NCBI GenBank assembly: GCA_900551455.1
Contig: URVV01000002.1
Location: 24,290-88,289, forward strand
From: an uncultured Mycoplasmatota bacterium
GTDB lineage: Bacteria > Bacillota_I > Bacilli_A > RF39 > UBA660
Direction of reading: 5' to 3'
Length of the DNA stretch: 64,000 nt
A program made the translations under genes and the position numbers. Below, in pieces: positions 31,825-56,441 of the stretch (positions within the stretch are counted from its first letter, which is position 1; each line of letters opens with the position of its first letter). The notes under the pieces were generated by a model. That model was not told where the DNA came from. It saw only the letters and a list, made by a program, of their open reading frames with translations, and ran no database searches.

Positions 31825-31844
31825 AAATTTATCACTTCCTTGTG

Positions 31845-34079: not shown

Positions 34080-34086
34080 ATGTCAC

Positions 34087-38852: not shown

Positions 38853-39954
38853 TTAATAATGATTTATATTTTTTAAATAACATATCCGCTTGGTGGTCAA
38901 TGTCATATTTTCCAAATTTCATTTTGCTATTTTTTTCCAAGCGTTTTTTATAATTCATATTTTTGTATATTTTATAAATTGATGAAGCCCAATAACTTGG
39001 ATCTTTTTCTAATGATATATAATTAATATTACTTGTGACGTCAATTTCTTTTGTTATTGTATCTGAAACGATTGATGGTACGCCGGCTGCTTGTACTTCT
39101 GACAAAACTACAGGTAATCCTTCATATCTTGATGGTAATACAAAAACATCGATTGCTGAAAGTAGTTCAGGTATATCTTTACGTAATCCCAAAAATAAGA
39201 CATTTTTTTCAAGTTTTAATTTTTTCACTTCACTTTTGAGCATTTCTTCATCTTCACCATTGCCTACTAACAATAACAAGATATTTTTATCGATTTTTTT
39301 CAAATAATGTATTACTTGCAATAAAAACATTTGATTTTTTTGATATGTTAATCTTGCAATGTTTCCTATAATGATTTTTTCTTGAGCATTTAATTCTTCT
39401 CTTATTTTTTTTCTACTTTTTTCGTTGTAAGCATATTTTTTTAAATCTATTGCGTTATTTATTATGGTTATTTCTCCTGGTTTTGATTCTTTTCCATACA
39501 ACCAATTTGATGCATCAAGACCACACGCAAATTTTGCGGTTGAGTACTTATTTAATAAAATTGTACTAATTTTTCTCATTATTTTGGTAAAACAATTTTC
39601 TTTTACATACGCCATGTGGCTATGAATAATTCTTACTTTACATCCATAATGCTTGCCTATTATTAATCCGAGAACAGATTTGTATCCGTGGCAATGTATA
39701 ATATCATAATTTCCATTTTTAATAATTTTATTTACTTCAACACAATGTTTTATATAATTGTTGCGTTTACTACTTACGTGATAAATAGTGCTATTTAATT
39801 TTACTAATTTTTCCTCTAAGTAGCCTACTTTGCTTCCAGGCACTATAAAATCAAATTTTATTTCTTTTTGATTCATCTTCGAATAATAGTTATACAAAAA
39901 GCTCTCTACTCCACCGCAATCAAGAGACGTATATAGATGCAAAACTTTAATCAT
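38818..39954 (-). CDS. Glycosyltransferase, GT-B fold (GT4/GT1 family)
   Basis: The N-terminus is KVLHLYTSLDCGGVESF. The C-terminal E-x7-E region is PSRYEGLPVVLSEVQAAGVP. Confidence 0.8.
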   Translation of the reverse strand: MIKVLHLYTSLDCGGVESFLYNYYSKMNQKEIKFDFIVPGSKVGYLEEKLVKLNSTIYHVSSKRNNYIKHCVEVNKIIKNGNYDIIHCHGYKSVLGLIIGKHYGCKVRIIHSHMAYVKENCFTKIMRKISTILLNKYSTAKFACGLDASNWLYGKESKPGEITIINNAIDLKKYAYNEKSRKKIREELNAQEKIIIGNIARLTYQKNQMFLLQVIHYLKKIDKNILLLLVGNGEDEEMLKSEVKKLKLEKNVLFLGLRKDIPELLSAIDVFVLPSRYEGLPVVLSEVQAAGVPSIVSDTITKEIDVTSNINYISLEKDPSYWASSIYKIYKNMNYKKRLEKNSKMKFGKYDIDHQADMLFKKYKSLLNATDGEKNNEK

Positions 39955-41029
39955 TTTTACACTCCTTTTTTAATCTTATTAATTCATTTGTTATTTTTTT
40001 TGTTAATTTATTGTTTGCTTGGTACACTTTATTCATAAATTTTCGACTATTACTTTTAAATGAATTAATATTAATTTCATTATAATACTTATATAAATCA
40101 TCTAATTCTTTTTTTTCTTTCATATGAAGTTCATATCCTAAATTATATTTGCTTACTATTTCTGACATATAAGTCTTCGGACAGACTAAAATTGGTTTAT
40201 ATAGGCAAGCACTATAATACAGTTTATTTGATAGTGCATAATTTAATAATGGGGTATTATTGCCATATAAATTCATAATTATATCCGCTTGTTTATAATA
40301 TTCTAAAGTTTTATTTTTTGGAAATGTATCAATTAATGTTACATTTTTAATATTATTTTTTTTGCAGTATTCTTCTATTTTTTTTGAGTTTGTTCCAACA
40401 AAATTTAATTGAAATCTTGGGTCGTTTTTAAAAAAATTTATAATTTTAATGTTTTGCTCCATAAATCTAATCAGTCCAATATAGCTTATTTGTATTTTTT
40501 TATTTGTATCTCTTCTGCTTGTTTGGTATACATTAATATTTTTTTCATTTGGTACGTTATGACAAATATAATAATTCCCTTGAGGCAAAAACTTTTTGTA
40601 CCCTGGTGATGATATAACATTTAATAAAGAATTGTTAATTAGTTTTTTTTGAATTTTTCTGTATAAACAATATTTTTCATAACTATAATCTCTTATGTCA
40701 AATATATATTTTTTATGGTATTTTTTTATTAACTTTTTATAAATTATAAATGATGTCTGTGGATGAAGGGGAATAATTAGGTCATATGATTTTTTACTTA
40801 TTTGTCTTAAAATCATGTGTTTATATTTGATATATCCGATTAATTTGTTAATATATCCACTTTTATTTATTGAAAATCTGTAATATTTATCGTTTGAAAT
40901 AAATTCATTTTTATTTTTGTCCCAATACATTACATCATAGTCTATTGAATTTTGTTCAAGTAAGTTTGTATAATAAGAAAGATACGGTGTAAGATATACA
41001 TTATCTGACAAAATAATTAATACATTCAT
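39947..41029 (-). CDS. Putative glycosyltransferase / capsule biosynthesis protein
   Basis: About 360 aa in the operon, with a GT-B-like C-terminal half (FVGTNSKKIEEY...NKLYYSACLYKPILV). No sharp motif was found. Confidence 0.4.
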   Translation of the reverse strand: MNVLIILSDNVYLTPYLSYYTNLLEQNSIDYDVMYWDKNKNEFISNDKYYRFSINKSGYINKLIGYIKYKHMILRQISKKSYDLIIPLHPQTSFIIYKKLIKKYHKKYIFDIRDYSYEKYCLYRKIQKKLINNSLLNVISSPGYKKFLPQGNYYICHNVPNEKNINVYQTSRRDTNKKIQISYIGLIRFMEQNIKIINFFKNDPRFQLNFVGTNSKKIEEYCKKNNIKNVTLIDTFPKNKTLEYYKQADIIMNLYGNNTPLLNYALSNKLYYSACLYKPILVCPKTYMSEIVSKYNLGYELHMKEKKELDDLYKYYNEININSFKSNSRKFMNKVYQANNKLTKKITNELIRLKKECKND

Positions 41030-41045
41030 AGTTAGACTCCTTTAA

Positions 41046-42233
41046 TCATTTTAATATGTTATTAATTGTTTTTGCTACTAGTTTTGCATCATATTCAGTG
41101 ATTAGTAATTTTCTACCATTCTCACCCATTTTTTTACGTAAACTCTTGTTTGCAATTAATTGATTAAATTTAATATCAAAATTCTTAATGCTTGAAGACT
41201 CACACCAAAAACCACAATTATTATCTGTTAGTATTTCTTTTAAATCTGTATTCTTATCAGTAGCTGCCATTATCGGTATACTATACTCTAAATATGATAG
41301 CATTCTTGATGGTATATTTGGAATTGTAAATCTTGAATCAAGAAATATAAGACCAATATCTACGTCATTTAATAGTTTTGAATACTCAGTAGTTGTCAAG
41401 TAATCTAATGCTATTACATTATTAAAATCATTTTCATTAATATAATTATAAAATTGATTTTTTTCGGTTCCTTTACCAGCAAAAATAAAATAAATATCTT
41501 TTCTGTTTTTATAATTATGTATTACTTTCTTTATAAAGTCTACTCCTTGTGGCTTTCCAAAATTACCTCCATAGAGTGCAAGAACGCTATTTTTAGGTAT
41601 ATTATATTTTTTTCTAATATTATATGTTCCTTTTTCAACATCTTTAATTCTTATTGCATTTGGCAGTAAAAATAGTTTATTGTTTTTTAATTTTGGATTA
41701 TGTGATATTATATAATCAATATTTCCTTTTGACATACATCCAATATAGTCTGATACAGCATATAGTTTTTTTTCTTTTTGTCTGAATATATAATATGGTA
41801 AGGATTTTTTCTTTATTATATTTATATCTACGGCATTATCTGGAAATATATCTTTTTGCATTAAAAGTGTTTTACATTTATAATTTCTTTTTAATATTTT
41901 TATGACACTTACAATAGTCACTGGTGGTGCAGTATAAATTATTAGATCATATTTTTCTTTTTTTAAATATTTATTTACACTTTTTATAATGTGATATGGT
42001 AATATCAAATAAGAAATTGCTTTTTTAATTACATTTACATTAAATATCTTTCCTGTTTTTACTCTAATAACTCTCATTTTTCTTTCGATACTACAATTTG
42101 TTTTTTGAACATTTCCGTTTGTTACTATGACATCAACGGCGTTGTCAAGTGATAATTCTTCTGCTAAATCGGTATATATGTTGTTGCCATCTTTTTCTAA
42201 TGGAAAATTTATTGTTAAATATAATATTTTCAT
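41046..42233 (-). CDS. GT4 glycosyltransferase, WbuB-like (candidate L-FucNAc transferase)
   Basis: The N-terminus MKILYLTINFPLEKDGNNIYTDLAEEL and the overall layout resemble WbuB/Cap5L-type enzymes, which accompany fnlABC. The substrate is inferred. Confidence 0.6.
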   Translation of the reverse strand: MKILYLTINFPLEKDGNNIYTDLAEELSLDNAVDVIVTNGNVQKTNCSIERKMRVIRVKTGKIFNVNVIKKAISYLILPYHIIKSVNKYLKKEKYDLIIYTAPPVTIVSVIKILKRNYKCKTLLMQKDIFPDNAVDINIIKKKSLPYYIFRQKEKKLYAVSDYIGCMSKGNIDYIISHNPKLKNNKLFLLPNAIRIKDVEKGTYNIRKKYNIPKNSVLALYGGNFGKPQGVDFIKKVIHNYKNRKDIYFIFAGKGTEKNQFYNYINENDFNNVIALDYLTTTEYSKLLNDVDIGLIFLDSRFTIPNIPSRMLSYLEYSIPIMAATDKNTDLKEILTDNNCGFWCESSSIKNFDIKFNQLIANKSLRKKMGENGRKLLITEYDAKLVAKTINNILK

Positions 42234-42239
42234 TTTATG

Positions 42240-42956
42240 TCACCTATTCCAATAATGATATATTGAATTGTACTGTACTACATTAAATCCATTCTTTAGA
42301 TAAAACTTTTGTGCAACAAGGTTATTTAGCTGAGTACCAACTATAATTTTTTGGATGTTATTTGTTGTGCAAAATGAACTTAGTCCATCAATAAGTTTAC
42401 TACCGACACCTTTTCCACTTTCTTCACTGTCTACGGCAATTAACTCAATTGTTGCTATACTATCTTTTATATTAAATAATAAAAAGCCTTTATCTTGATA
42501 TAAACAAAAATATTTATTTTTGTTGTTAAATGAATTTTTGACCCAATTCCAATAAATATTCTTTGATTTTGTATTTTCTAAATACTTATCATTTAAAAAT
42601 CTAGAGTATTTAAATGAGTTTTTTGCAATATTTAATATTTTTTCATTTTCTTCATAATTATTCACTATTTTAACTTTTTTATCTACTGTCTTATTTTCTT
42701 TATTCTCTATTTTTCTTTCAAAGCAAACATTAACATCTGCTAAGAAACAATTTGATAGCATTCTTAAAAGATAATTATTTATATCATTGTTGTTGTAATT
42801 ATATATTGTAATAAACTTATATTTTTTAGTTTTATCTAATATCTCATTTATGTTTTTTAACTTAGCATATAAGTTTATTCTATATGATGGAATATTGAAA
42901 TAATTACTATCCCACTTTAGTTCATAAAATTCATTTTTTTTCAATATAAACACCAT
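42240..42956 (-). CDS. WecD-like GNAT N-acetyltransferase for a 4-amino-4,6-dideoxy sugar
   Basis: N-terminal WDSNYFNI (compare the WecD W-x-x-x-FFG pattern), then SRF. The GNAT core is IAVDSEESGKGVGSKLI...VGTQLNNLVAQKFYLKNGF. Confidence 0.6.
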   Translation of the reverse strand: MVFILKKNEFYELKWDSNYFNIPSYRINLYAKLKNINEILDKTKKYKFITIYNYNNNDINNYLLRMLSNCFLADVNVCFERKIENKENKTVDKKVKIVNNYEENEKILNIAKNSFKYSRFLNDKYLENTKSKNIYWNWVKNSFNNKNKYFCLYQDKGFLLFNIKDSIATIELIAVDSEESGKGVGSKLIDGLSSFCTTNNIQKIIVGTQLNNLVAQKFYLKNGFNVVQYNSIYHYWNR

Positions 42957-43524
42957 CTTTTCTTATGACCATTTTAATTGTATTATATAGTATCTTCAAA
43001 TCTAGTATAAAACTTAGATTTTCAACATAATATACATCATTTTTTAATCTTTTTTTCCAAGTAATTGAATTTCTAAAATATGCTTGGTTATAGCCAGTTA
43101 TTCCAGGCGATACTAATAGTTTCTTTCTTTCTTTCTTGGTGTATAAATTAATGTGTTCTGGTAAGTCTGGTCTAGGTCCAACTAGACTCATATCGCCTTT
43201 TATGACATTAATTATCTGCGGTAGTTCATCAATACTTGTTTTTCTTAATATTTTACCAATTTTTGTTAATCGAGGATCATTTTCACCATTAAATGTAGAA
43301 CCATCTTTATTTCTTATGTCTTTTGAATTAACTTTCATAGTTCTAAATTTATACATTTTAAATATTTTACCATTTTTCCCTAATCTTTCTCCATTATAAA
43401 AAATTGGTCCTTTATCATCAAAAAAAATTAATAGTGCTACGGGTATTCCTATAACTACAATAATTGGAATTAGGATAATTGATAATAGTAGATCAAGTAT
43501 TCTTTTTAAAAATAATTTATACAT
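42931..43524 (-). CDS. Small monotopic phosphoglycosyl transferase (PglC/WbaP-C-terminal type), priming enzyme
   Basis: 197 aa with one N-terminal re-entrant helix. YKFRTM and DELPQIINVIKGDMSLVGPRP are present. Confidence 0.85.
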   Translation of the reverse strand: MYKLFLKRILDLLLSIILIPIIVVIGIPVALLIFFDDKGPIFYNGERLGKNGKIFKMYKFRTMKVNSKDIRNKDGSTFNGENDPRLTKIGKILRKTSIDELPQIINVIKGDMSLVGPRPDLPEHINLYTKKERKKLLVSPGITGYNQAYFRNSITWKKRLKNDVYYVENLSFILDLKILYNTIKMVIRKDGVYIEKK

Positions 43525-44736
43525 TTACTTTTTACCGATTATTTCATTATATATTGCACATATATATTTAATACTTTTTGTAGTTAGTAGGGTGTGTAAT
43601 GGTAGAGTAATCTCATTTTTATACAGGTTGTGAGCGTTAGGATAGTCAGCAATATTGAATCCTAGGTTTTTATATGCTGTATGCATTGGTAAAGGTTTGT
43701 AATGAACATTTGATGAAATGCCGTGTTCGGCTAATTTAATAATTATTTCATTTCTTTCTTGTTCAGTGATTCCCTTTACTCTGGTTAATAGTAGATGTCC
43801 ACTTGAATTGCTATTTGGTTTATAATGCTTAATTATTTCTATTTTTTCTTTATTAAGCAATGACTCATATAATTCAATAAATTTTTTTCTTTTTTTTAAG
43901 AGTGAGGGGTATCTTTTCAATTGGGCTAATCCTATTGCAGCCATTATATCGGTCATATTACATTTATAAGCAGGAGAGATAATGTCATATTCCCAAGCTC
44001 CTAATTTTGTCTTTGCTAAAGCGTCTTTTGATTGACCATGTAGGGATATTAGCATAAACTGTTTGTATAACCATTCGTTGTCTAAGCCTTTGATATTTTT
44101 CCAGGTGACTGCTCCGCCTTCTGCAGTAGTTAGGTTTTTAACAGCGTGAAAAGAAAAACTTGTAAAGTCAGCAACACTTCCTGAGGGTTGTCCTTTGTAT
44201 GTGGCTCCAAATGAGTGAGCGGCATCTGCACATACTATGATTCTTCCATATAATTTTTGAATATCATTATTAGGAGTAAATAGAGCTTTCTTTTTTTCAA
44301 TAATTGTAAATATTTTATCGTAGTCACACATTACTCCAGCAATATCTACAGGGATTATAGCTTTGGTTTTTTCGGTGATGGCATCTTCTAATTTGTTATA
44401 ATCCATTTCATAGGAGTCTTTTTGAGTGTCTACTAAAACAATTTTTGCTCCGATGTGATTTATGACACTGGCACTAGCAGTATAAGTATATGCTGATGTA
44501 ATTACTTCATCGCCAGGTCCAATTCCTAATAGTCTTAGAGTCATTTCCTGACAAGCGGTTTGAGAATTTAAACAAACTGCTTTATCGGTGTGACAAAATT
44601 TGGCAATTCTTTTTTCGAATTCTTTAGTTTTAGGGCCTGTTGTAATCCAACCTGATTTTAGTGTATCTACTACTTCATTAATTTCTTTGTCAGTAATATC
44701 CGGTGGGGAAAAAGGTATATTTTTTTGCTTCTTCAT
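43525..44736 (-). CDS. DegT/DnrJ/EryC1/PglE-type PLP-dependent sugar aminotransferase
   Basis: NIPFSPPDITDKEINEV, SGWITTGPK, and SFHAVKNLT carrying the PLP lysine. Confidence 0.85.
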   Translation of the reverse strand: MKKQKNIPFSPPDITDKEINEVVDTLKSGWITTGPKTKEFEKRIAKFCHTDKAVCLNSQTACQEMTLRLLGIGPGDEVITSAYTYTASASVINHIGAKIVLVDTQKDSYEMDYNKLEDAITEKTKAIIPVDIAGVMCDYDKIFTIIEKKKALFTPNNDIQKLYGRIIVCADAAHSFGATYKGQPSGSVADFTSFSFHAVKNLTTAEGGAVTWKNIKGLDNEWLYKQFMLISLHGQSKDALAKTKLGAWEYDIISPAYKCNMTDIMAAIGLAQLKRYPSLLKKRKKFIELYESLLNKEKIEIIKHYKPNSNSSGHLLLTRVKGITEQERNEIIIKLAEHGISSNVHYKPLPMHTAYKNLGFNIADYPNAHNLYKNEITLPLHTLLTTKSIKYICAIYNEIIGKK

Positions 44737-44737
44737 T

Positions 44738-46597
44738 TTATTCCTTCTCTCTTCTATCTATTTTATAAGTTTCTACTATTTTAGCAATTCTTTCTTTTAT
44801 ATCTTTATTATTTTTGTATGAATATTCAATTAATTTTTCTAAATCATTTAAGAATTTCTTTTCATTCATTTCAATTGGTTTACCAATATGGATTAGTTTA
44901 TTAGGAGTTTCTTTTAGTCCTTCTTCATCCATAAGTAATTCTTCATATAATTTTTCGCCTGGTCTTAAGCCTGTTATTTTGATAGGCATTTCGGTAAATG
45001 GTTCATAGCCTTTAAAACGAATTATTTTTTTTGCTAAGTCATATATTTTTATGGGTTTTCCCATATCTAAGACGAAGATTTCTCCACCTTCAGCATATAC
45101 AAAGGCTTGAAGGATTAGTGATACTGCTTCAGGAATTGTCATAAAGAATCTGGTAATATCTTTGTGAGTTACAGTTACTGGTCCGCCTTCTTCGATTTGC
45201 TTTAAAAATAGTGGGATGACGCTTCCATTTGACCCTAGGACGTTACCAAATCTTACAGCAACATAGTCGGTTTTTGATTTTTTGTTATAGGTTTGAATAA
45301 TCATTTCGCAAATTCTTTTAGTAGCTCCCATAACATTAGTTGGTCTTACGGCTTTATCTGATGAAATTAAAACAAATTTTTTGACTTTATAGATATCTGC
45401 TAATTTAACAACATTTAATGTTCCTAGGCAATTATTTTTTATGGCTTCGTTGGGACTGGCTTCCATTAAGGGAACGTGTTTATGAGCGGCAGCGTGAAAA
45501 ACATATTCTGGATGGTATTCTTTAAAAACACTTTCTACTCTGGCATAATCCCTAACAGAACCGATAATTGTTTTAAGATTTAACTTGGGATAATTTCTTA
45601 ATAACTCTTGTTCGATGTCATAGGCATTATTTTCATATATATCAAATATAATTAATTCTTCTGGTTGACATTTGGCAATTTGACGACATAATTCACTGCC
45701 GATGGATCCACCACCACCAGTTACTAGAATTACTTTGTTGCAAAGGCTTTTTGAAATTTCTTTTAAGTCTACGACAATTTCTTTTCTTCCTAAGAAGTCT
45801 TCATAAGACAATGGTCTTACTTTCTTCATCGTAGGCTTACCTACTAATTCATTTAATCCAGGAAGGGTTTTAATGGTACAATTTGTTTTTTGGCATTCAT
45901 CAATTATAATGTTTAAATTTTCTCTTCCGATGGAGGGCATTGCAATAATTATTTCTTCAATGTTATAATTTTCAACGGCTTTTTCAATATATTCTCGATT
46001 GCCAACAACAGGAATATTTTTGATATAGCTACCAATTTTATTTTTGTCGTCATCGATAATACAACAAATTTTATTGTTAAAATTTACTTTATTATTATAT
46101 ATTTCAGTGATAAGCATTCTTCCGGCTTCGCCAGCACCGATAATCATTGTGTTAGTTAAACCACTTTTTTCGTGGTAATAATCTTTTATTACTCTAGCAA
46201 TACGGTATGAATATCTAATTGCTCCGATAAAAATATATAGTAGGAATAGTTCAATTATATAGAAACTTCTTGGTAAGTTAACTTCTAATATTTGTTTATA
46301 TAGAAATGATATTATTTCATAGATACTACAGGAAATAATAATATTAATTGTTTCATTAATTGAAGCATATGACCACATACTTTTATATAATCTAAATATA
46401 GAGAAAATGCAAATTAGGATTAATGAATCTGTAAATAGATATTTATATATATTGTTAATATAATTTTGTTCTAAGTGAAAATCCAATCTAAGTGCTAACG
46501 CTAAAAAAGAACATAGTGTTAATGCTAAAACATCTAGTATTATAAACATTATTATTCTTATTCTTTTTTTATTTAAAAAATTTTTTAATTTAGCCAT
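44738..46597 (-). CDS. capD: CapD/PglF-type membrane-bound UDP-GlcNAc 4,6-dehydratase
   Basis: Four N-terminal TM segments and two Rossmann regions (IIGAGEAG; VTGGGGSIGSEL). AAHKHVPLME and MGATKR are also present. Confidence 0.85.
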   Translation of the reverse strand: MAKLKNFLNKKRIRIIMFIILDVLALTLCSFLALALRLDFHLEQNYINNIYKYLFTDSLILICIFSIFRLYKSMWSYASINETINIIISCSIYEIISFLYKQILEVNLPRSFYIIELFLLYIFIGAIRYSYRIARVIKDYYHEKSGLTNTMIIGAGEAGRMLITEIYNNKVNFNNKICCIIDDDKNKIGSYIKNIPVVGNREYIEKAVENYNIEEIIIAMPSIGRENLNIIIDECQKTNCTIKTLPGLNELVGKPTMKKVRPLSYEDFLGRKEIVVDLKEISKSLCNKVILVTGGGGSIGSELCRQIAKCQPEELIIFDIYENNAYDIEQELLRNYPKLNLKTIIGSVRDYARVESVFKEYHPEYVFHAAAHKHVPLMEASPNEAIKNNCLGTLNVVKLADIYKVKKFVLISSDKAVRPTNVMGATKRICEMIIQTYNKKSKTDYVAVRFGNVLGSNGSVIPLFLKQIEEGGPVTVTHKDITRFFMTIPEAVSLILQAFVYAEGGEIFVLDMGKPIKIYDLAKKIIRFKGYEPFTEMPIKITGLRPGEKLYEELLMDEEGLKETPNKLIHIGKPIEMNEKKFLNDLEKLIEYSYKNNKDIKERIAKIVETYKIDRREKE

Positions 46598-46610
46598 TGC
46601 AATTCAACCT

Positions 46611-47480
46611 TTACTTTCCTTTCTTTAATAGTAACAATCCTAATACTAGGAAAAATGTTAAAATTATTATTAATATTAACCAAGTCCCTTGATAATTATT
46701 TTTTTCTTTAAAAACATCATCATCTATTTTTACGTGTTCAACTTCTTTTAAAACTTCTACTTTTATAGTATATTCTTGGGTATGTTTTTCATCGTCAGTT
46801 ACTTTTATGGTTATTTTATTATCAGTTAATTCTGATATTTTTTGATTAGATACTTCTATTTTGTAATTATCTTTTATAGCAATAGGCTTTAGATCTAATT
46901 CTTGAATATCATTTTTAATAACTACTTTATACTCATAGACGTTATTTTCTAAGTTTATTTTTACTATTTTAGAATCGATGGATTTTAGGAGATTATAGTT
47001 TTTATCTTTATTATCATCTTTGGTGTCTTCCTTAGTTTCTTGCTTTGTGACAATACTTATTTCTATATTTTTACTGTTTAGTCTTATGGTTTTTCCTGAT
47101 TCGGTAATAGCAGTGGCATTTTGAAGATTAATTGTTCCGGATTTATCTTTGGGGTTACTTCTTGTACTGATAACAACTTGACCTAATAATACTTGCCCTT
47201 TAGCACTAGTACTAAGAGTTAATTTGTGATGAGGTCCATTTGGATTAGTATCAGTTATTCCACTGTTAGATTTAAAATTAGCGGGAATATCATATGTAGT
47301 AAAATATAAGTCAAATTCAACGGCAGTTATATTTTCTTCAACGTTAGCATATAATTCAACTCTTTTTTCCTGACTAATATTCATACTGATATTTTCTTCA
47401 TTTACTGTTAAGGCTAAAACATTATTAGAATTGATTGTTATAATTATAATAGCAAAAATTATTGTTAATAGTCTTTTCAT
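46611..47480 (-). CDS. Secreted, C-terminally anchored protein with beta-sandwich (cohesin/cadherin-like) repeats; first gene of the glycan operon
   Basis: It has a signal peptide and a C-terminal TM segment. An NYNLLKSI...EYKVVI...EYTIKV module resembles cadherin-like beta-sandwich domains. It lies 13 nt upstream of capD. Confidence 0.4.
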   Translation of the reverse strand: MKRLLTIIFAIIIITINSNNVLALTVNEENISMNISQEKRVELYANVEENITAVEFDLYFTTYDIPANFKSNSGITDTNPNGPHHKLTLSTSAKGQVLLGQVVISTRSNPKDKSGTINLQNATAITESGKTIRLNSKNIEISIVTKQETKEDTKDDNKDKNYNLLKSIDSKIVKINLENNVYEYKVVIKNDIQELDLKPIAIKDNYKIEVSNQKISELTDNKITIKVTDDEKHTQEYTIKVEVLKEVEHVKIDDDVFKEKNNYQGTWLILIIILTFFLVLGLLLLKKGK

Positions 47481-47504
47481 ATATAATCACTCTACCTAAA
47501 TATA

Positions 47505-47533
47505 ATTATAAACATTTAGTTAAAACTAGTCAA
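47505..47533 (-). promoter_or_regulatory. sigma-A type promoter of the glycan operon
   Basis: On the minus strand: TTGACT (47528-47533), 17-nt spacer, TATAAT (47505-47510), 25 nt upstream of the ATG at 47480. Confidence 0.55.
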
Positions 47534-47577
47534 GGCTAAATAAGAAAATTAGCGACATTTGTAAATTTAATATATGG

Positions 47578-47604
47578 AAAAACTAGGAATTTTTTCCTAG
47601 TTTT
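47578..47604 (-). terminator. Terminator after spoIVB
   Basis: Stem AAAACTAGGAA/TTCCTAGTTTT, 4-nt loop, overlapping the spoIVB stop. Confidence 0.55.
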
Positions 47605-48568
47605 CGGCTTCTTCTAACATATTGGTAATAAATATTCCATATCCTTTATTTGTCTTGTCTACTAGAACGTAGTTTACGGCACCAATTATATTATCATTTT
47701 GAATAATTGGACTACCACTCATACCTTGAACTATTCCACCAGTTTTTTCAAGTAAAGTTTTGTCGGTGATTTCAAATAAAATGTTTTTTGTTTTAGAATT
47801 GTCATTAATTTTTAGGATGTTAATATCAAATTCTTCTACTTTGCTTCCACTAATTGTAGTTAGAATTTTGGCACTACCTAATTTTATTTCGTTGGAGGTG
47901 ACAACTTTATATAATTTGGCAGTAGGGATTTCTTTTGTGTATGTACCAAATATTCCACTTTGGGTATTTTCTTTTACTTCACCAAAGACATTAGATGAGT
48001 CACTTCTGGCATTTTTTTCACCAGGTGAACCATCTTTACTTTTAGTAATTCCAGTGATGGTTGATTTAAAGATAGTACCATTTTTAGTACTAAATTTAGT
48101 TTTAGTAGTTTTTTCAATTATTTCGTGGCCTAGGGCACCGAAAGTTTTATTCTCTTTATCAATATAAGTAAGTGTAGCTACTCCTCTTATAGTGTCTTTT
48201 ATATATAATCCTGTTCGGTATTCATCATCTTCTTTATATAGTTTAATGTTTGCTTGATATTCTTTGTCATTTCTTATATAGGTTATAGTAACATTATCTT
48301 TGTTTATCTCATTAATTATTTTGCTAACATCTAAAACACTTGAGACGGATTGATTATTTATTTTGGTTATTTTATCACCTATTTTTAAATCTGTATCTTT
48401 TAAAATGTTATGAGTGCCAATATCATATGAACCTACGATTAGAACGTGATCGGCTTTTAATTCAATGCCAATACTTTCTCCGGAGGCAATAATATAATCA
48501 GAATATGCAAAGACGGATAAGGGAATAAATAAGTATAGAAGAAGTAATGAGAAAGTAAATTTCTTCAT
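47597..48568 (-). CDS. spoIVB: SpoIVB peptidase (S55 signalling serine protease)
   Basis: Signal/TM segment and a PDZ-like region (GDKITKINNQSV). The catalytic region reads GALGHEI ... GIVQGMSGSPII. Confidence 0.85.
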   Translation of the reverse strand: MKKFTFSLLLLYLFIPLSVFAYSDYIIASGESIGIELKADHVLIVGSYDIGTHNILKDTDLKIGDKITKINNQSVSSVLDVSKIINEINKDNVTITYIRNDKEYQANIKLYKEDDEYRTGLYIKDTIRGVATLTYIDKENKTFGALGHEIIEKTTKTKFSTKNGTIFKSTITGITKSKDGSPGEKNARSDSSNVFGEVKENTQSGIFGTYTKEIPTAKLYKVVTSNEIKLGSAKILTTISGSKVEEFDINILKINDNSKTKNILFEITDKTLLEKTGGIVQGMSGSPIIQNDNIIGAVNYVLVDKTNKGYGIFITNMLEEAEN

Positions 48569-48730
48569 AGTCTATCACTCCTTAAGACTACATTACTATT
48601 GTGGTTAATTAATTAAAAGTTATAAGATGTAAAAATTGGTGCACTTTAATAATATGGTTATTTAAATTTTTATTTATTTTTTTAATTTTTACTTTTACTA
48701 TTATTCTATTTTTTACAAAATTAAAAATAG

Positions 48731-48780
48731 AAACTACTAAGATAATCTATATTATTATTTTGGTAGTTTATTTGTTTTTT
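48731..48780 (+). repeat. 16-bp-stem hairpin plus T-run; copy A of a duplicated 27-nt sequence
   Basis: AAACTACTAAGATAAT / ATTATTTTGGTAGTTT (two G-U pairs on the plus strand), 7-nt loop, then ATTTGTTTTTT. 48739-48765 is 26/27 identical to 49327-49353. Confidence 0.6.
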
Positions 48781-48907
48781 ATAAGAATTATTTTGTTCTT
48801 TTTTGAGAATCTTCTTATAAAAGTATTACTACAAAAACTAATTTTTTCTTTTTATTATTATTCTTTTTTAGATAATAAAATATAAATTAATTCATAAAAT
48901 TAATTGG

Positions 48908-49269
48908 GTGATTATTTTGTTATATCCATTTATTTTAACTAGTTTAGCTGGTTTATCTACTTTACTTGGAACACTACCAATTTTTGTTAAAATTAAAGAT
49001 AGTAATAAGTTGATAGGTGCAGGTCTTTCTTTTGCTTCAGGTGTTATGATATGTATATCTATTATGGATTTAATACCAGAATCTATTAATTATTTGAGGG
49101 GTAATTTTAAGGGAATAGTAGTTATTTTACTGTCTTTTGTTACTCTTATATTAGGAATGGTTATTTCTTCTTTTATGGATAAGACAATTGATAAATTTAG
49201 TGAGGGAAATAGTTTATATAAGACTGGTATTTTATCAATGATAGCAATTATACTGCACAATATTCCGGA
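48908..49269 (+). pseudogene. zupT: zupT (ZIP-family zinc transporter), 5' fragment, interrupted after ...ILHNIPE
   Basis: The N-terminal 121 aa align with the ZupT N-half (TLLG..., GVMICISIMDLIPES, ILHNIPE). The ORF then reads 7 unrelated codons (DCISYVS) and stops at 49294. Confidence 0.8.
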
Positions 49270-49324
49270 AGATTGCATAAGTTATGTATCATAAAAAATA
49301 TAATATTGGTTAAAAATAAAAATC

Positions 49325-49360
49325 CCAAGATAATATATATTATTATTTTGGTATTTTTTT
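49325..49360. terminator. Bidirectional terminator downstream of the toxin gene; copy B of the duplicated 27-nt sequence
   Basis: Stem CCAAGATAAT/ATTATTTTGG, 7-nt loop, with T-runs on both strands. Confidence 0.6.
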
Positions 49361-49375
49361 CTCTAAATATAGGTT

Positions 49376-49846
49376 CTATTTTAATTCTTCAAGCATTTGC
49401 TTTTTAATTTTATCAATATCGGTAAAAAACAAATTTACACCTTTAGATTTTAATTTTAATAAATATTTAAAATTTTGTAGTATCTCATCTTTTAATGTTT
49501 CAACAACCTTAGCAGGTTTACCATTGTCAAGTAAATGTTCATGATCGATATATTTTTCTAAAGTAGGAAAAGCATTTTGTAATAAGACCACTGAATCTTT
49601 ACCTAAGATTTCTCTAATAAGTATAGTATCACAGCGACCATATTTTTTCATTTTATTATCTAAAATTTTTCTATATTTATCAACTTTACTACTTAATGGA
49701 ATAAACCATAATATATCTTTATCTTTAATAGTGAAATATGTTGGACGCTTTTTTCCACGTTCATGATTTGTCATTAAATTATCATCATTTACAACATCAA
49801 AATATTTATCTTTTATATGATATAAATAACCTGTTTTAATTTTCAT
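49376..49846 (-). CDS. Type III toxin-antitoxin system toxin (ToxN/AbiQ/CptN-superfamily endoribonuclease)
   Basis: 156 aa. The N-terminus YLYHIKDKYFDVVNDDNLMTN...RPTYF...ILWFIPLSSKVDKY resembles ToxN/AbiQ-like toxins (compare ToxN YLAPLTSPK). It follows the canonical promoter, tandem repeats and terminator layout. Confidence 0.7.
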   Translation of the reverse strand: MKIKTGYLYHIKDKYFDVVNDDNLMTNHERGKKRPTYFTIKDKDILWFIPLSSKVDKYRKILDNKMKKYGRCDTILIREILGKDSVVLLQNAFPTLEKYIDHEHLLDNGKPAKVVETLKDEILQNFKYLLKLKSKGVNLFFTDIDKIKKQMLEELK

Positions 49847-49880
49847 AGACTATCAACTCCGATAAATAGTATACCATATA

Positions 49881-49914
49881 TAAAAAGAAAACTCTATTAT
49901 ATTAACAGAGTTTT
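49881..49914 (-). terminator. Intra-operon terminator between the antitoxin repeats and the toxin gene
   Basis: On the minus strand, stem AAAACTCT/AGAGTTTT with an 11-nt loop, followed by CTTTTTA. This is the same position as the attenuating terminator in toxIN loci. Confidence 0.6.
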
Positions 49915-49918
49915 CAAA

Positions 49919-50023
49919 ACATTTTCGTTCGGGATAATTTATTACTCGCACCACCCGAGAGCGAGAAACATTGTCGCCCGGAATAATTTATTACTCGCAC
50001 CATCCGGGAGCGAGAACATTTTC
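49919..50023 (-). ncRNA. Type III antitoxin RNA: 2.1-2.2 tandem repeats of about 48-49 nt
   Basis: Unit starts (ACATT) at 49919, 49968 and 50016. The units are nearly identical, and every substitution inside the internal 6-bp helix is compensatory. Confidence 0.7.
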
Positions 50024-50053
50024 TTATCATTGCACTTCTTCAAATGCAATAAT

Positions 50054-50082
50054 AATATACTATATTTTATGCAAAAAGTCAA
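50054..50082 (-). promoter_or_regulatory. sigma-A type promoter of the type III TA operon
   Basis: On the minus strand: TTGACT (50077-50082), 17-nt spacer, TATATT (50054-50059), about 30 nt upstream of the first repeat. Confidence 0.55.
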
Positions 50083-50379
50083 TACTTAGCATAAAACTTG
50101 CAAAATTACATTTGCATTAATATTATATGTCATTATTACTTTTTTAAACATAATTTTAATATTAGATGCAAATATGTCTATTAAGGATATTAATTTTATA
50201 ACAAGATTAGTACTTTTTTTATATTTAACCAATTCCCCAATATTATAATTTTATGGCCGTAAGTTAGGCCATAAATAGCATTTTTTACTATCTAATAAGT
50301 GTGTACGTTTGTTATACAGCCCTTATTTTATAAGAAATAAAAGTTAACAGTTATATAACAATATTTTAAAATGTAAACT

Positions 50380-50477
50380 CTTGTATTTTTAATAAACCCT
50401 TATGAGATAAGGGAAAACTCACCACTGGTGAGTTGTTTGTAAACAGGATTTATCCTGCTTTTATTTTGTTATTAAAT
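50380..50477 (+). ncRNA. Candidate small RNA or leader with three tandem hairpins, ending in a terminator
   Basis: Putative promoter TTAACA-17-TAAAAT (50344-50372). The hairpins are CCCTTAT/ATAAGGG (50407-50423), AACTCACC/GGTGAGTT (50426-50444) and CAGGA/TCCTG followed by CTTTTATTTT (50454-50477). Confidence 0.3.
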
Positions 50478-50676
50478 TGATTGTAATTTATTTATATTTA
50501 TGTTATAAAAATGGCCAAAGTTATGGCCGTAGATTTTATAAATTTTAATGATTTTTTAGATAATGGTTTTATTAAATTTATAGCAACATTATCATTTATT
50601 TTTTTATTTAATAATAAATTTTTTTTATCATAAATTTAATTAGATAGTCTTCTAATAATAAAAGGGGGTTGATAGA

Positions 50677-50790
50677 TTGAAAGAATTAAAATTTAATTTA
50701 TATTATGATAATAATGGTGATGAATTAAATACTTTATTAATTAATTATATTACTAATTATTTAAATAATTTGAGGCTTACAAATCAATGA
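50677..50790 (+). CDS. Unlisted 37-aa ORF upstream of the recombinase (candidate accessory/directionality factor)
   Basis: TTG start 8 nt after a strong AAAGGGGG SD. The product is MKELKFNLYYDNNGDELNTLLINYITNYLNNLRLTNQ. It ends 52 nt before the recombinase start on the same strand. Confidence 0.3.
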   Translation: MKELKFNLYYDNNGDELNTLLINYITNYLNNLRLTNQ

Positions 50791-50842
50791 TTATGCGTTA
50801 TCATTATTTTAACCAATATTATATTTCTATTAAGGAGGCAAT

Positions 50843-52444
50843 GTGTATAATAATATAGGAAATATAATAAAAGAATTTTATGTTGCAATTTATATAAGAC
50901 TATCTAAAGAAGATGAACGACTTGGTGAGAGTGAAAGTGTCGAGAATCAAAAGATATTACTTACTAATTATGTTAAAGAAAAAGGATTTAATCTTATAGA
51001 TATTTATATTGATGATGGTTATACTGGTACTAATTTTAATAGACCTAATTTTCAAAGATTACTTAAAGATATTGAATCAGGCAAAATAAATATGGTAATT
51101 ACTAAGGACTTATCTAGATTATCAAGAGATTATATCGGTACTGGTGAATATGTTGAGAAATGGTTTCCAGAACATAATGTTAGATATATTGCTTTAACTG
51201 ATAATATTGATACATTTTTAGATAACTCTAATAATGATATTGCACCTTTTAAAGCTATCTTAAATGATATGTATGCAAAAGATTTATCTAAGAAAATTAG
51301 AACAGCACTTCATACTATGCAGAAAGAAGGTAAGTGGGTTGGTGGATGCCCACCTTTTGGATATAAAATTGATCCAAACGATAAGAATCATTTAGCCATA
51401 GATGAAATTGAAGCACCAATTGTTAAAAGAATATTTGCCATGTTTTTAAATGGTATTAGAATCAATCAAATCAGAGATGTATTAAATAAAGAAAATATTC
51501 CTACTTTTTCAATTACTAGAAATAGAAAATTGATGCGAAAAGGTAATGGTGGCAATATCTACGGTTATTGGTGCAATACAACTATTAAAAAAATACTTCA
51601 AAATAGACTATATATGGGTGATATGATTCAAAATAGGCGTCAAAGATTAAGTTATAAATATCGTAAAATAATTTGTAATACTAAAGATAAATGGATAATT
51701 GTTCCTAGTACTCATGATCCAATTATATCTAAAGAAGAATTTGATAAAACACAAAAATTATTACCAAAGCAACGCCAAAGAAATGATAAAAAAGAAATAT
51801 TTTTACTTGATGGCTTACTTACTTGTGCTGATTGTGGTCATAATATAGGGATTAGGGCAAGACGATCTAATGGTAAAAGTACAACAGTATGTAATTATTA
51901 TCGCAAATATAGTAAAGAATATAGATTGTGCAGTGCTCATGGCTTTGATTATGATACATTAGAGGTTGGGATAATTAATATTATTAAAAATGTTGTTTGT
52001 CAAGTGTTAGATGAAAAATTAGAAAACAAAGTTCTAAAGAAATATCAAGATAAGTCAAGTATAAATAATTATTTTAAATCAAAAGAAAAATTAGAATATG
52101 AACTAAATAAACTTAATATGACTTTAGACAACATGTATATTGATAAATTGCAAGGAAAAATAAGTGAAGAAATGTATAATCGAATTCAAGATAAATTAAA
52201 TAATGAAATCAATATTACAAGCAATAAACTAGATGAGATTAATGATTATATAAATAAATTAAATAATGATAAAGATAATTTTGATAAAATAAGGCAAGAA
52301 ATTAGTAATTATAAGAATAAATATCCATCTCGTGACTTAATTCTTAAATTAATTAAAAATATTGCTATACACGAAGATGGAAACATTGATATTTATTTCA
52401 ACTTTAAAGAGTTGAATATTATTTATAATAACCGTGATGCATAG
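50843..52444 (+). CDS. Large serine recombinase (SpoIVCA/CcrB/TnpX-like)
   Basis: The N-terminal resolvase domain reads VAIYIRLSKEDE...SVENQ and ITKDLSRLSRD. A recombinase domain, a Cys4 zinc ribbon (CADCGH...CNYY...CSAHG) and a C-terminal coiled coil follow. AAGGAGG SD. Confidence 0.9.
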   Translation: MYNNIGNIIKEFYVAIYIRLSKEDERLGESESVENQKILLTNYVKEKGFNLIDIYIDDGYTGTNFNRPNFQRLLKDIESGKINMVITKDLSRLSRDYIGTGEYVEKWFPEHNVRYIALTDNIDTFLDNSNNDIAPFKAILNDMYAKDLSKKIRTALHTMQKEGKWVGGCPPFGYKIDPNDKNHLAIDEIEAPIVKRIFAMFLNGIRINQIRDVLNKENIPTFSITRNRKLMRKGNGGNIYGYWCNTTIKKILQNRLYMGDMIQNRRQRLSYKYRKIICNTKDKWIIVPSTHDPIISKEEFDKTQKLLPKQRQRNDKKEIFLLDGLLTCADCGHNIGIRARRSNGKSTTVCNYYRKYSKEYRLCSAHGFDYDTLEVGIINIIKNVVCQVLDEKLENKVLKKYQDKSSINNYFKSKEKLEYELNKLNMTLDNMYIDKLQGKISEEMYNRIQDKLNNEINITSNKLDEINDYINKLNNDKDNFDKIRQEISNYKNKYPSRDLILKLIKNIAIHEDGNIDIYFNFKELNIIYNNRDA

Positions 52445-52458
52445 TAAATACAACCAGA

Positions 52459-52855
52459 GGGAATTGTTACTTTTATTGTAAGTAATAGAAATATTATGTT
52501 AGGTATATCTATATGTGTAGCAATTACTTTACACAATATTCCAGAGGGAATTAGTATAGCTATTCCTATATATTATTCTACAGGTAGTAAATTTAAGGCA
52601 ATATTATATACTTTTATATCAGCTATATCAGAATTATTAGGAGCAGTTATTACGTGGCTATTTTTAGATAAATTTATTAATGATATGATATTAGGAATAT
52701 TATTTAGTTTTATTGCAGGAATAATGATTCAGATATCGATCGGGAAACTTATACCTACGGGATGTAATTATAATAAAAAAGAAGCTAAGCTATTTTTTGG
52801 AATTGGATTTTGTTTTATGATTATTAGTCTTCTACTAAATAGCTTAATTTCTTAA
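52459..52855 (+). pseudogene. zupT: zupT, 3' fragment (resumes at GIVTFIV...)
   Basis: The frame open from 52454 reads PEGIVTFIVSNRNIMLGISICVAITLHNIPEGISIAIPIYYSTGSK... It is colinear with E. coli ZupT HNFPEGIATFV...[22 protein letters not shown]. The internal ATG at 52496 has no SD. Confidence 0.8.
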
Positions 52856-53147
52856 ATATATAGGTTATACATTTACGAGTAAATTTGTTACCTTTTTCAC
52901 TAAGATTATACATTGCGTTGGTTATTTTATTCGTATAATCTTTTTTTTCGTTATCTAGATATTTTTTTATATCTATGTCATTACCGCTTTTGACATCTTC
53001 TTCAAATTCTTTAATTTTTTCATTAGTAATAATAGTTCTTTGTTGGAGTTCATACTCATAGTAACCAGAATTAGAGATATAATATGCTGAGATGAAGACA
53101 ATAATGATTAGGATAAAAATTAGTTTTATGGGATTATTTTTTTTCAT
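52824..53147 (-). CDS. Small N-terminally anchored protein downstream of spoIIP
   Basis: 107 aa with one TM segment. Its start overlaps the spoIIP stop. It occupies the position of yqxA in Bacillus, but no sequence similarity was verified. Confidence 0.45.
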   Translation of the reverse strand: MKKNNPIKLIFILIIIVFISAYYISNSGYYEYELQQRTIITNEKIKEFEEDVKSGNDIDIKKYLDNEKKDYTNKITNAMYNLSEKGNKFTRKCITYIFKKLSYLVED

Positions 53148-54126
53148 TTATATACGTAGATAATATATCAGTTAAAGCGTTTATAGTACACATAACTTCA
53201 TCAATAGTATTATCTACTCCTCCTAACTCTATTAAGATGGTATTAGGTGATATATCTTGATTATAGATACCATTTACATTTGGACCTTCTTTTTTATAAA
53301 TACCTCTACTTAATCCCGGGTAGGATGATTCAGCAATTTTATTTATTTCAGTGACTACTTCAAGATTTTTTTCCCAATTATTATGTTCTTTTCCTACGAC
53401 GAAGAGAATACGAGCATAAAGTTTATTATTAATTTTTGTGGTGGAGATATTTTTACTTACAGAGTCGCGATGAATATCAATATAGTATTTTAAACTGGAA
53501 TAGGTATTCTTTTTATCTAACATAAAGATTCTACTGGCACGATAGGAATTAGCGTGAGACCAGTTATTTAATTCTAAGAATTCTGTGAGATTGGTATCTT
53601 CAACAATAGTAGAAATGCCTACGTCAATTAGTTTTTCTTTTAATAGATAACTAGCCATTAAGACGTTTGGGGTAATTCCATATACTGAAAGATTGGCATT
53701 ATTGTAGTTTTCTAATTGATGAGAGTTATATATATATACTTGCGGATTTTTAACATCCACTTTGTTAGGATCTTCTATATAATAACTTATTTTTTTTAAT
53801 TTTTCTAAATTGGAATAGGTATCATCTTCTTCGTTATCTTGATATCCTAAAATACTTTCATTGAAGATAGTTTCGGGATTTTTAAAATCTATTTTTAAGA
53901 AGAAATTGATAGTTTTATTAATTAGTTTTGGAAGTTTATATTCGTTTTGAAAAGAGATGTTTCCTCCGTTTAAAAGGAAGTTGATAAACTCTTGGTTTGC
54001 TAGATGACTGTTATTTTTGAAAGAATAATAAAAAGTATAGGAAAATGTTAAATATAAGAGGATTATTAAGATAAAATATTTAAATTTCTTTTTCTTGGGT
54101 ACTTTCTTTAATTTCATATGAGCCAT
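53134..54126 (-). CDS. spoIIP: Stage II sporulation protein P (SpoIIP amidase/endopeptidase)
   Basis: N-terminal TM segment. VYIYNSHQLENY, YIDIHRDS and ILIELGG are present. It lies directly downstream of gpr, as in Bacillus. Confidence 0.8.
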   Translation of the reverse strand: MAHMKLKKVPKKKKFKYFILIILLYLTFSYTFYYSFKNNSHLANQEFINFLLNGGNISFQNEYKLPKLINKTINFFLKIDFKNPETIFNESILGYQDNEEDDTYSNLEKLKKISYYIEDPNKVDVKNPQVYIYNSHQLENYNNANLSVYGITPNVLMASYLLKEKLIDVGISTIVEDTNLTEFLELNNWSHANSYRASRIFMLDKKNTYSSLKYYIDIHRDSVSKNISTTKINNKLYARILFVVGKEHNNWEKNLEVVTEINKIAESSYPGLSRGIYKKEGPNVNGIYNQDISPNTILIELGGVDNTIDEVMCTINALTDILSTYINEKK

Positions 54127-56250: not shown

Positions 56251-56436
56251 GTTATTATTATTTACCCAAAGAACCGATACTAAGGAGATAAAACCCGCGC
56301 GCAATCACACAGGTGGGTAATCACGGTATAGTAATTAGGATTCTTAATAGGATTAAGCATTCAACACATACAATACGTTAGATTCCCTAAATATATCTTT
56401 GTCGGTTTTAAATATAGTTGTCGTATCCTTCAGGTA
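56251..56436 (-). ncRNA. Candidate structured ncRNA of about 175-185 nt (6S RNA-like) upstream of tcdA
   Basis: A relatively GC-rich island in an AT-rich spacer, bounded by a strong promoter (56442-56469) and a hairpin (56225-56250). Its 5' end (56423-56436) pairs with its 3' end (56263-56280) over 14 bp, and internal helices give a rod-like fold. Confidence 0.35.
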
Positions 56437-56441
56437 TTTTA

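Follow-up and report, generated by a model that had tools for sequence, protein, structure and literature searches.

A minimal serine-recombinase element interrupts a ZupT-like ZIP transporter gene at its HNIPEG-coding palindrome in an uncultured gut bacterium

We analyzed a 64-kb stretch of contig URVV01000002.1 from an uncultured Mycoplasmatota bacterium (hereafter the window; all coordinates are positions in it). In this window, a gene for a ZIP-family, ZupT-like metal transporter is interrupted by a 3,189-bp insert that carries a large serine recombinase (LSR), a conserved 37-aa open reading frame (ORF) directly ahead of it and a predicted CptIN type III toxin-antitoxin (TA) module. With a probability of about 80%, we take the insert to be a minimal site-specific integrative element of the Tn5397/Tn4451 type, whose family targets the HNxPEG-coding palindromes of ZIP genes. 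The ZIP target and the small partner ORF are both new for this class of LSR elements.

A single ZIP gene is split in frame and is intact in an empty allele

The ORF at 48908-49294 (128 aa) encodes 121 ZIP residues as far as ...AIILHNIPE, then DCISYVS and a stop codon, while the frame that opens at 52454 reads PEGIVTFIVSNRNIMLGISICVAITLHNIPEGISIA... as far as 52855. Both fragments match the Pfam family Zip (PF02535), over profile positions 13-101 for the 5' fragment and 192-321 for the 3' fragment, of 323. They also match the NCBIfam ZupT model NF003243, over positions 5-143 and 136-264 of 266, which places them next to each other within one protein. When 49269 is joined to 52459, a 252-aa ORF results with one continuous NF003243 match over 5-264/266, confirming the claim of an earlier sequence-only reading that one gene is split in frame inside its HNIPEG motif with 3,189 bp in between. 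The name zupT given to it there was upheld in part: it is a ZIP gene with a single ZupT-wide match, but the joined protein scores 224.2 bits, below the NF003243 equivalog cut-off of 252. "ZupT-like ZIP transporter" is thus the safer name for the predicted ZIP-family product.

Main features of the split locus.
48908-49269 (+): 5' fragment of the ZupT-like ZIP gene, covering codons 1-120 and 2 nt of Glu121; seven foreign codons and a stop at 49294 complete the ORF
49270-52458 (+): integrated element, 3,189 bp, 23.9% G+C
52459-52855 (+): 3' fragment of the ZupT-like ZIP gene, from G122 through its stop codon; 99.9% identical to the empty allele
52529-52552 (+): second HNIPEG-coding motif (CACAATATTCCAGAGGGAATTAGT), a near-copy of the attB site described below with a few bases different, unoccupied in the window

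A search with the joined protein returned a 252-aa protein (P0001), 99% identical over its full length and encoded on a Logan contig of the same species (L001, from SRR29133764). This contig aligns to window positions 45626-49269 at 99.6% identity and to 52454-53224 at 99.9%, lacks the intervening 3,189 bp and encodes an intact 252-aa ZIP protein; the last 70 nt of the 5' part are 100% identical to its gene. Its neighbours are those of the window, with spoIVB upstream and a 107-aa gene downstream. The sequence at the join, ...CACAATATTCCGGAGGGAATTGTT..., is exactly the predicted attB. The uninterrupted gene that was to be looked for in relatives therefore exists, with attB as foreseen to the base, and the expectation that excision would restore the gene exactly agrees with the exact join and the identical empty allele.

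Two further observations concern this gene. The interval 48569-48907 is the intergenic region between the divergent spoIVB and ZIP genes, and tandem or double occupancy of both HNIPEG motifs might exist somewhere.

The strand exchange maps to a GA dinucleotide at the centre of a coding palindrome

Base-by-base comparison of attB, attL and attR limits the exchange to a shared GA (49268-49269 and 52457-52458), a 2-bp core as expected of a serine recombinase. The exchange is conservative: the join is exact, and no target duplication is found beyond the 2-bp core.

Attachment sites (no strand assigned to attL and attR).
49239-49299: attL, with the B arm in zupT and the P' arm formed by the left end of the element; crossover at GA 49268-49269
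52428-52488: attR, with the P arm overlapping the 3' end of the LSR gene and the B' arm in zupT; crossover at GA 52457-52458
attP, reconstructed by joining the right end to the left end: ...GTAAATACAACCAGAAGATTGCATAAGTTATG...

The left-arm sequence AGATTGYA...TATGYATCAYA is kept in three related contigs (L002, L042 and L044), and the right-arm sequence ...CAAYCAGA/RGG (slash at the junction) is conserved among relatives. The reconstructed attP is an imperfect inverted repeat whose arms match at 16/30 positions, and the core of attB, ATTCC-GGAG-GGAAT, is a palindrome. In codons, I-P-E-G-I becomes ATT CCN GAR GGN ATT, which forms the palindrome ATTCC/GGAAT with GA at its centre. Because the codons build this GA-centred palindrome, the conserved HNIPEG DNA serves as a landing site and either of its two repeats is usable. 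In this way HNxPEG, a protein motif present twice in ZIP transporters, gives rise to a palindromic DNA site that is exploited by mobile elements across divergent hosts.

We propose that the LSR recombined a circular attP with the attB inside the ZIP/ZupT-like gene; cleavage and strand exchange would have taken place at the GA belonging to the Glu codon of the first HNIPEG motif. The insertion would inactivate the transporter. An attL x attR reaction would restore the gene exactly; this reverse reaction is probably catalysed by the LSR as well, with the 37-aa protein possibly setting the direction. Since the LSR, the small ORF and the att arms are intact and the family is mobile, the window copy should still be able to excise.

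The recombinase is related to transposon enzymes and evolves under purifying selection

50843-52444 (+): LSR, 533 aa

The 533-aa LSR and its stop codon, which ends 13 bp before the GA, are as the sequence-only reading had placed them, and the domain check that it called for gave Resolvase (PF00239), Recombinase (PF07508) and Zn_ribbon_recom (PF13408), all above the Pfam cut-offs. The protein also matches the integrase family PHROG 95 (E 2e-100). Its N-terminus, ...AIYIRLSKEDE..., includes the R-x-S catalytic motif. The dN/dS values of the LSR against its relatives are 0.11-0.24, indicating purifying selection.

Homologues of the LSR number in the thousands. Among solved structures, the TnpX catalytic domain (Tn4451) ranks first (E 1e-30), followed by SprA of SPbeta over its full length (E 1.7e-24), and the best named match in the plasmid collection is TndX of Tn5397 (33.5% identity over 94% of the query). 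IMG/VR contains no relative of the LSR and GenBank phages none above about 36% identity, so that a prophage origin is not supported.

The parallel with Tn5397 of C. difficile is the closest. TndX directs Tn5397 to a central GA and strongly prefers DNA that encodes a conserved Fic domain (PMC4430133). Here too, the LSR gene stands at the end of the element, the crossover is a central GA, the target is DNA coding for a conserved domain and the target gene is split; moreover, relatives of the window LSR lie in elements that carry a type IV secretion system (T4SS) coupling protein. Tn5397 differs in its size (21 kb), its Tn916-type conjugation module and its Fic target, whereas the window element is 3.2 kb long, has no transfer genes and sits in a ZIP gene. 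TndX alone suffices in both directions, as cited in PMC4430133, unlike the window LSR, which is always accompanied by the 37-aa ORF and is only about one third identical to TndX. Tn4451 and Tn4453 with TnpX are likewise small clostridial LSR-driven elements, and Tn4451 recombines at 2-bp identities (PMC5704250). Tn4451 has a MobV relaxase and oriT, a resistance gene and low target specificity (PMC5704250), in contrast to the highly site-specific window element. Insertion of LSR-driven elements within dispensable genes, which they disrupt, is documented (PMC5704250, PMC4430133). A metal transporter had been put forward as an undescribed target, and in the literature searched we indeed found no paper linking zupT with a serine recombinase or integrase. 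Together, these data define a previously undescribed LSR clade with a known attB/attP pair, a natural empty site and a compact native context of 3.2 kb, and the system is raw material for directionality studies and genome engineering.

The LSR gene and the downstream ZIP fragment lie in one frame (50843-52459; 1611 nt, or 537 codons apart) and are separated solely by TAG TAA. For one LSR relative of 73% identity, the gene caller gives a 668-aa LSR-Zip fusion (P0139), which may be due to chance or may be a real read-through product.

The element family keeps its target and exchanges its cargo

All the LSRs examined at 57-90% identity to that of the window are directly followed by a ZIP 3' half (contigs L002-L008, L027-L030 and L042-L053). 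Nine related element types join at the first HNIPEG motif. Two others join at the second one, namely L051/L053 (LSR 64% identical) and L008/L030 (LSR 57%); in these, the sequence after the junction is PEGISIAMPVYYAT... and the remaining ZIP fragment is ~100 aa long rather than ~130. LSRs of 52% identity or less are not beside ZIP genes. The genome contig scan with the LSR yielded no relative closer than 57%, hence no second empty site, and the metagenome contig scan added mostly short fragments.

Cargo carried by related elements in ZIP genes.
Window: CptIN; 3.2 kb
L002/L003: GNAT acetyltransferase, ASCH protein and one unknown; ~3.9 kb
L042: two radical-SAM/SPASM enzymes and small ORFs; ~6.6 kb
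L044-46: a single 1,587-aa NPCBM/F5_F8 surface protein; ~6.8 kb
L048: radical-SAM, nSTAND3-like and UvrD-helicase genes; left end not seen
L049-L053 (LSR 64-68% identical): T4SS coupling protein (T4SS-DNA_transf/TrwB/TraG-D_C), a sortase and an extended series of unknown genes; >8 kb

One integration module, made of the small ORF, the LSR and the att arms, would thus be combined with a varying cargo that ranges from a TA pair to conjugation-type genes. In L049-L053, this cargo immediately precedes the small ORF and the LSR, and the group looks like an integrative conjugative element (ICE). The elements of L002/L003 (LSR 75% identical) lie in the same spoIVB-ZIP neighbourhood as that of the window. 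In L006/L007, an LSR 90% identical to that of the window (89% at the DNA level) is found beside a ZIP half of only 58% identity. An LSR this similar next to so different a ZIP half means that the module crossed between clearly different hosts, and the family as a whole would appear to move between hosts. In three rabbit-gut Bacilli metagenome-assembled genomes (MAGs; L021, L020 and L013), 2-3 LSR genes with 33-40% identity to the query are clustered in ~10-12 kb at non-ZIP targets; by analogy, these loci are reminiscent of multi-recombinase composites of the gin or SCC type.

The manner in which such an element would travel is less apparent, and several negative results weigh against the proposed mobility. 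As the sequence-only reading had noted, the element lacks phage and conjugation genes: none of its ORFs matches conjugation, relaxase or oriT-related families, or phage families, in Pfam, NCBIfam, PHROGs and PADLOC. The route of the 3.2-kb element between cells is not recognisable for want of a relaxase, an oriT or any other recognised transfer function, though an oriT may be hidden in the conserved hairpin region described below. In L049-L053, the 8 kb of flank covered contains a coupling protein and a sortase but neither a full T4SS nor a relaxase. A pattern scan of viral contigs gave no circular attP junction, and no circular contig of the element was found. Finally, all empty sites could be alleles that were never occupied instead of excision products. 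Two contigs of suitable length, L005 (3,188 bp) and L047 (3,163 bp), were considered as assembled circles and rejected, both containing the ZIP 3' half and thus being integrated copies.

Elements of the ICE and integrative mobilizable element (IME) classes possess their own integration module at one end and insert site-specifically in a gene, which is what we observe here, together with transfer genes, which we do not. The streptococcal serine-recombinase IMEs (e.g. in rumA) sit inside dispensable conserved genes and disrupt them (PMC5704250). They resemble the window element in having a site-specific serine recombinase inside a conserved dispensable gene and differ from it by their relaxase/oriT module. 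Since no such module was recognised, the window element is not a canonical IME.

The lack of transfer genes and of a circular form, along with the larger relatives with T4SS genes at the same site, could also point to an immobile remnant, i.e. a larger conjugative element that decayed to its integration module and TA pair, the ZIP gene being a pseudogene and the islet being kept by CptIN, as TA addiction could retain a useless insert. We consider this unlikely on several grounds. The element has an intact LSR, an intact small ORF and two intact att arms. Identical copies of it are present in the human-gut metagenome contigs L027 and L028, and copies from several independent samples are identical or 99% identical. 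The purifying selection on the LSR is family-wide, so that the "stabilised dead insertion" once suggested is improbable for the family (dN/dS 0.11-0.24). Mini-elements of unlike cargo have in common about 40-90 bp at the left end as well as the small ORF and the LSR, as expected of a propagating lineage and not of independent decay; those of the window and L002-L004 share a hairpin unit as well, which L042 lacks. The 90%-identical LSR in a very different host likewise argues against a remnant.

The cargo of the window element is a complete CptIN module

The type III TA module that had been recognised in the element from its letters was corroborated by a match to the NCBIfam CptIN family and by the features upstream of the toxin gene. 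The 156-aa toxin ORF has no match in Pfam or PADLOC and was identified by NCBIfam alone.

Features of the CptIN module.
49376-49846 (-): cptN, type III toxin, 156 aa; NF047359 CptIN, E 1e-47, 161.8 bits vs cut-off 90
49887-49915 (-): terminator hairpin between the antitoxin repeats and cptN, 13-bp stem then T-run
49917-50014 (-): cptI, candidate for the antitoxin RNA, made of two 49-nt repeats in tandem (88% identical)
50054-50082 (-): promoter-like site TTGACT-17-TATATT upstream of cptI, from a consensus scan only

Promoter, tandem repeats, terminator hairpin and toxin follow each other as in published type III systems, in which cptIN loci have 1.9-3.4 copies of 40-48-nt repeats (PMC3401426). 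The two repeats found here are within this range of copies, and the 49-nt unit is 1 nt above the range of lengths. The layout of the module is complete, and the toxin would be an endoribonuclease that the repeat RNA neutralises. The CptIN systems of Coprococcus catus and Eubacterium rectale are alike in the toxin scoring above the equivalog cut-off, in the promoter-repeats-terminator-toxin order and in the two repeats. What sets the present module apart from published CptIN is the 49-nt unit and its setting, since no description of CptIN as cargo of an LSR mini-element was found in the literature searched. CptIN probably stabilises the element, its loss on excision freeing the toxin, or protects against phage, or does both.

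The exact CptN protein was found on 56 public contigs. A rabbit-gut "Bacilli" MAG (L025) encodes a cptN homologue of 58% amino acid identity, with an upstream repeat/promoter region ~70% identical in nucleotides, and CptIN seems to travel with LSR elements. On that contig, the cptN homologue (among 1869-2622 and 2697-3323) adjoins a fragment of another serine-recombinase gene.

The insertion is polymorphic in the population of a gut spore-former

The exact LSR, toxin and ZIP N-fragment occur in public human-gut assemblies, namely L027 (a MetaHIT-type sample), L028 (ERR209832) and L047. Among the 15 of 35 members listed for the ZIP 90% cluster, the intact 252-aa protein is found on ~170 contigs, the 128-aa N-fragment on ~70 and the 119-aa C-fragment on 76. 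Roughly 30% of the contigs among these listed members thus carry the split allele and ~70% are without the element, which would accordingly be present in only part of the host population. In the NCBI MAG "Mycoplasmatota bacterium", which belongs to the same species group, SpoIVB and an intact ZIP protein have consecutive accessions (MDO4394960 and MDO4394961) and phosphoglucomutase (MDO4394968) follows seven genes later; this is the gene order of the window minus the element. These data reveal a common polymorphism in which the element is either present or absent and, where present, knocks out a metal importer of this uncultured gut spore-former.

The host is, as judged from its genes, an uncultured spore-forming gut bacterium of 27% G+C. 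The claim that it sporulates agrees with the presence of SpoIVB, SpoIIP and Gpr by Pfam and of a SpoIIM homologue at about 22516-22965.

A small ORF and non-coding motifs accompany the recombinase

Upstream of the LSR gene, the element contains a small ORF and several non-coding features, some of which are conserved among relatives of unlike cargo.

Features between the left end and the LSR gene.
49295-49309 (-): 15-nt motif, left-end copy CCAATATTATATTT(C/T), 27 bp inside the element
50344-50466 (+): non-coding unit with a promoter-like site (50344-50372), hairpins at 50397-50413, 50415-50434 and 50444-50457, and a T-run at the end
50629-50648 (+): conserved block CATAAATTTAATTAGATAGT upstream of the small ORF, found in the window, L002, L042 and L005, and partly in L043
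50677-50790 (+): conserved ORF, 37 aa, TTG start, ribosome-binding site AAAGGGGG
50813-50827 (+): 15-nt motif, second copy CCAATATTATATTTC, just upstream of the LSR ribosome-binding site (50832-50838)

The 37-aa ORF that had been pointed out ahead of the LSR is real and conserved. A small ORF lies directly upstream of every related LSR down to ~51% identity, including LSRs at non-ZIP sites (L009, L010, L032 and L033), and its product follows the pattern M-K-x-E-L-K-F-N-x-x-F-D-x-N-G-x-x-L-E-x-L-x-I-x-x-I-x-N-x-L. The window protein shows no similarity to known families in Pfam, NCBIfam, PADLOC and PHROGs. A profile search, built with a 41-aa homologue as first row, returned at least 140 clusters, all of 33-68 aa, none of which has a Pfam domain or an informative name. 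We regard this protein as a partner of the LSR and as the natural candidate for a recombination directionality factor (RDF) or a regulator. An unannotated protein family of 33-46 aa is thus always found with this LSR clade, and it would be exceptionally small if it were a true RDF.

The structured non-coding DNA described in the sequence-only reading corresponds to a hairpin-rich stretch that is conserved in part. In the scanned region 48500-53200, 8 terminator-like sites were detected vs 0.6 expected, and Rfam at a permissive threshold gave nothing in the element and solely a chance-level miRNA match. The non-coding unit is 79.5% identical in L002-L004, which carry other cargo, is recognisable in L043 and is missing from L042. 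Its fold z-score is -3.09, its second hairpin shows two compensatory base-pair changes vs L002/L043 and its third hairpin is a terminator. Both copies of the 15-nt motif are kept in L002 and L042 despite their unlike cargo, and the LSR-side copy is also conserved in L043 and L006. In the window, the left copy belongs to a perfect 20-nt inverted repeat with 50807-50826; the motif is conserved in sequence without covariation. The CATAAATTTAATTAGATAGT block is presumably a promoter or operator. More generally, the motif pair, the hairpin unit and this block could be operators, a small RNA or leader, or DNA hairpins for transfer.

A 40-aa ORF at 50511-50633 (+) was rejected as a gene, as it falls in an alignment insertion specific to the window and is absent from related elements. 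It is called by public gene callers (L027, L028 and L047), and the stretch has ATGGCC-type hairpins.

The inverted repeat bears on the idea of a reversible vegetative switch resembling "active lysogeny", in which excision and re-integration would toggle zinc uptake on a signal such as zinc limitation. The perfect 20-nt repeat links the left end, just after the truncated zupT ORF, to the 5' leader of the LSR gene, and in one variant of the idea transcripts that start at the zupT promoter and read through into the element may pair with this leader by way of the repeat. The 15-nt core is kept in three element types of unlike cargo, both gene halves are intact and both alleles are common in the population. 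However, the motif shows no covariation, and a protein-binding site or a promoter fits it equally well; the two states have not been seen in one strain; and an excised 3.2-kb circle without a recognisable replication function would be lost, whereupon CptIN would be expected to kill the cell, which speaks against frequent vegetative excision. On balance, a switch of this kind appears very improbable.

Comparison with the developmentally excised elements of spore-formers

The sequence-only reading had likened the insert to skin. On this view, the small ORF would act as RDF under the control of a sporulation sigma factor, and excision in the mother cell or forespore would rebuild the transporter to serve a zinc requirement specific to sporulation, while the germ line keeps the element. 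Like skin (in sigK), SPbeta (in spsM) and gin (in gerE), the window element is an LSR element that splits an ORF in a spore-former, and its precise excision would rebuild this ORF. The host sporulates and the gene lies between spoIVB and spoIIP/gpr; the small conserved ORF ahead of the LSR occupies a plausible place for an RDF. In sporulation gene-intervening elements, direction is set by the RDFs SprB, CD1234 and GirX (PMC5595907, PMC5499854, PMC5025042). A non-phage precedent exists in gin, a 28.6-kb gene-intervening element whose recombinase GirC and RDF GirX are expressed in sporulation (PMC5595907). The TA module would penalise loss of the element in dividing cells and not in a terminal mother cell, which also fits this idea.

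The CATAAATTTAATTAGATAGT block contains CATA.A.T, a -10-like motif, with no -35 to match. It resembles a sigmaE-type -10 box, but such matches are cheap in DNA of 24% G+C, and a look for sigmaE/sigmaK promoters ahead of the small ORF gave nothing convincing.

The targets differ: skin, SPbeta and gin sit in mother-cell sporulation genes and their excision is proven to be developmentally timed, whereas here the target is a ZIP gene, for which no sporulation role was found in the literature searched, and a ZIP importer is not among the known mother-cell sporulation genes. Skin and SPbeta are prophage-like and gin is 28.6 kb long, in contrast to a 3.2-kb element in a metal importer gene with conjugative-looking relatives. 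Close relatives carry conjugation-type genes at the same site, and the nearest characterised recombinases are the transposon enzymes TndX and TnpX. The host is not dependent on the element, ~70% of the listed contigs of the species group being without it, and the adjacency to spoIVB looks like plain synteny, seen with and without the element. We regard the skin-like interpretation as unsupported and quite unlikely.

A bolder combination of these ideas would make the insert a regulated gene-intervening element smaller than any known and the first one outside a sporulation gene, with the 37-aa protein as a new, unusually small RDF, the hairpin leader and the 15-nt pair as controls, excision in response to sporulation or zinc limitation that rebuilds the ZIP transporter when required, and CptIN punishing accidental loss. 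We consider this improbable, and the integrative element of the Tn5397/Tn4451 type remains our interpretation of the locus.

Other features of the window

A 6S/SsrS RNA gene at 56259-56439 (-), matching RF00013 with 67.2 bits and thus above the gathering score, is the sole Rfam family in the window. About a dozen co-directional ORFs at 30715-46597 (-) apparently form a cluster for cell-envelope polysaccharide biosynthesis, of which the Polysacc_synt_2/epimerase-type protein at 44738-46597 is the sole identified ORF. An LCP-family protein is encoded at 25243-26703.

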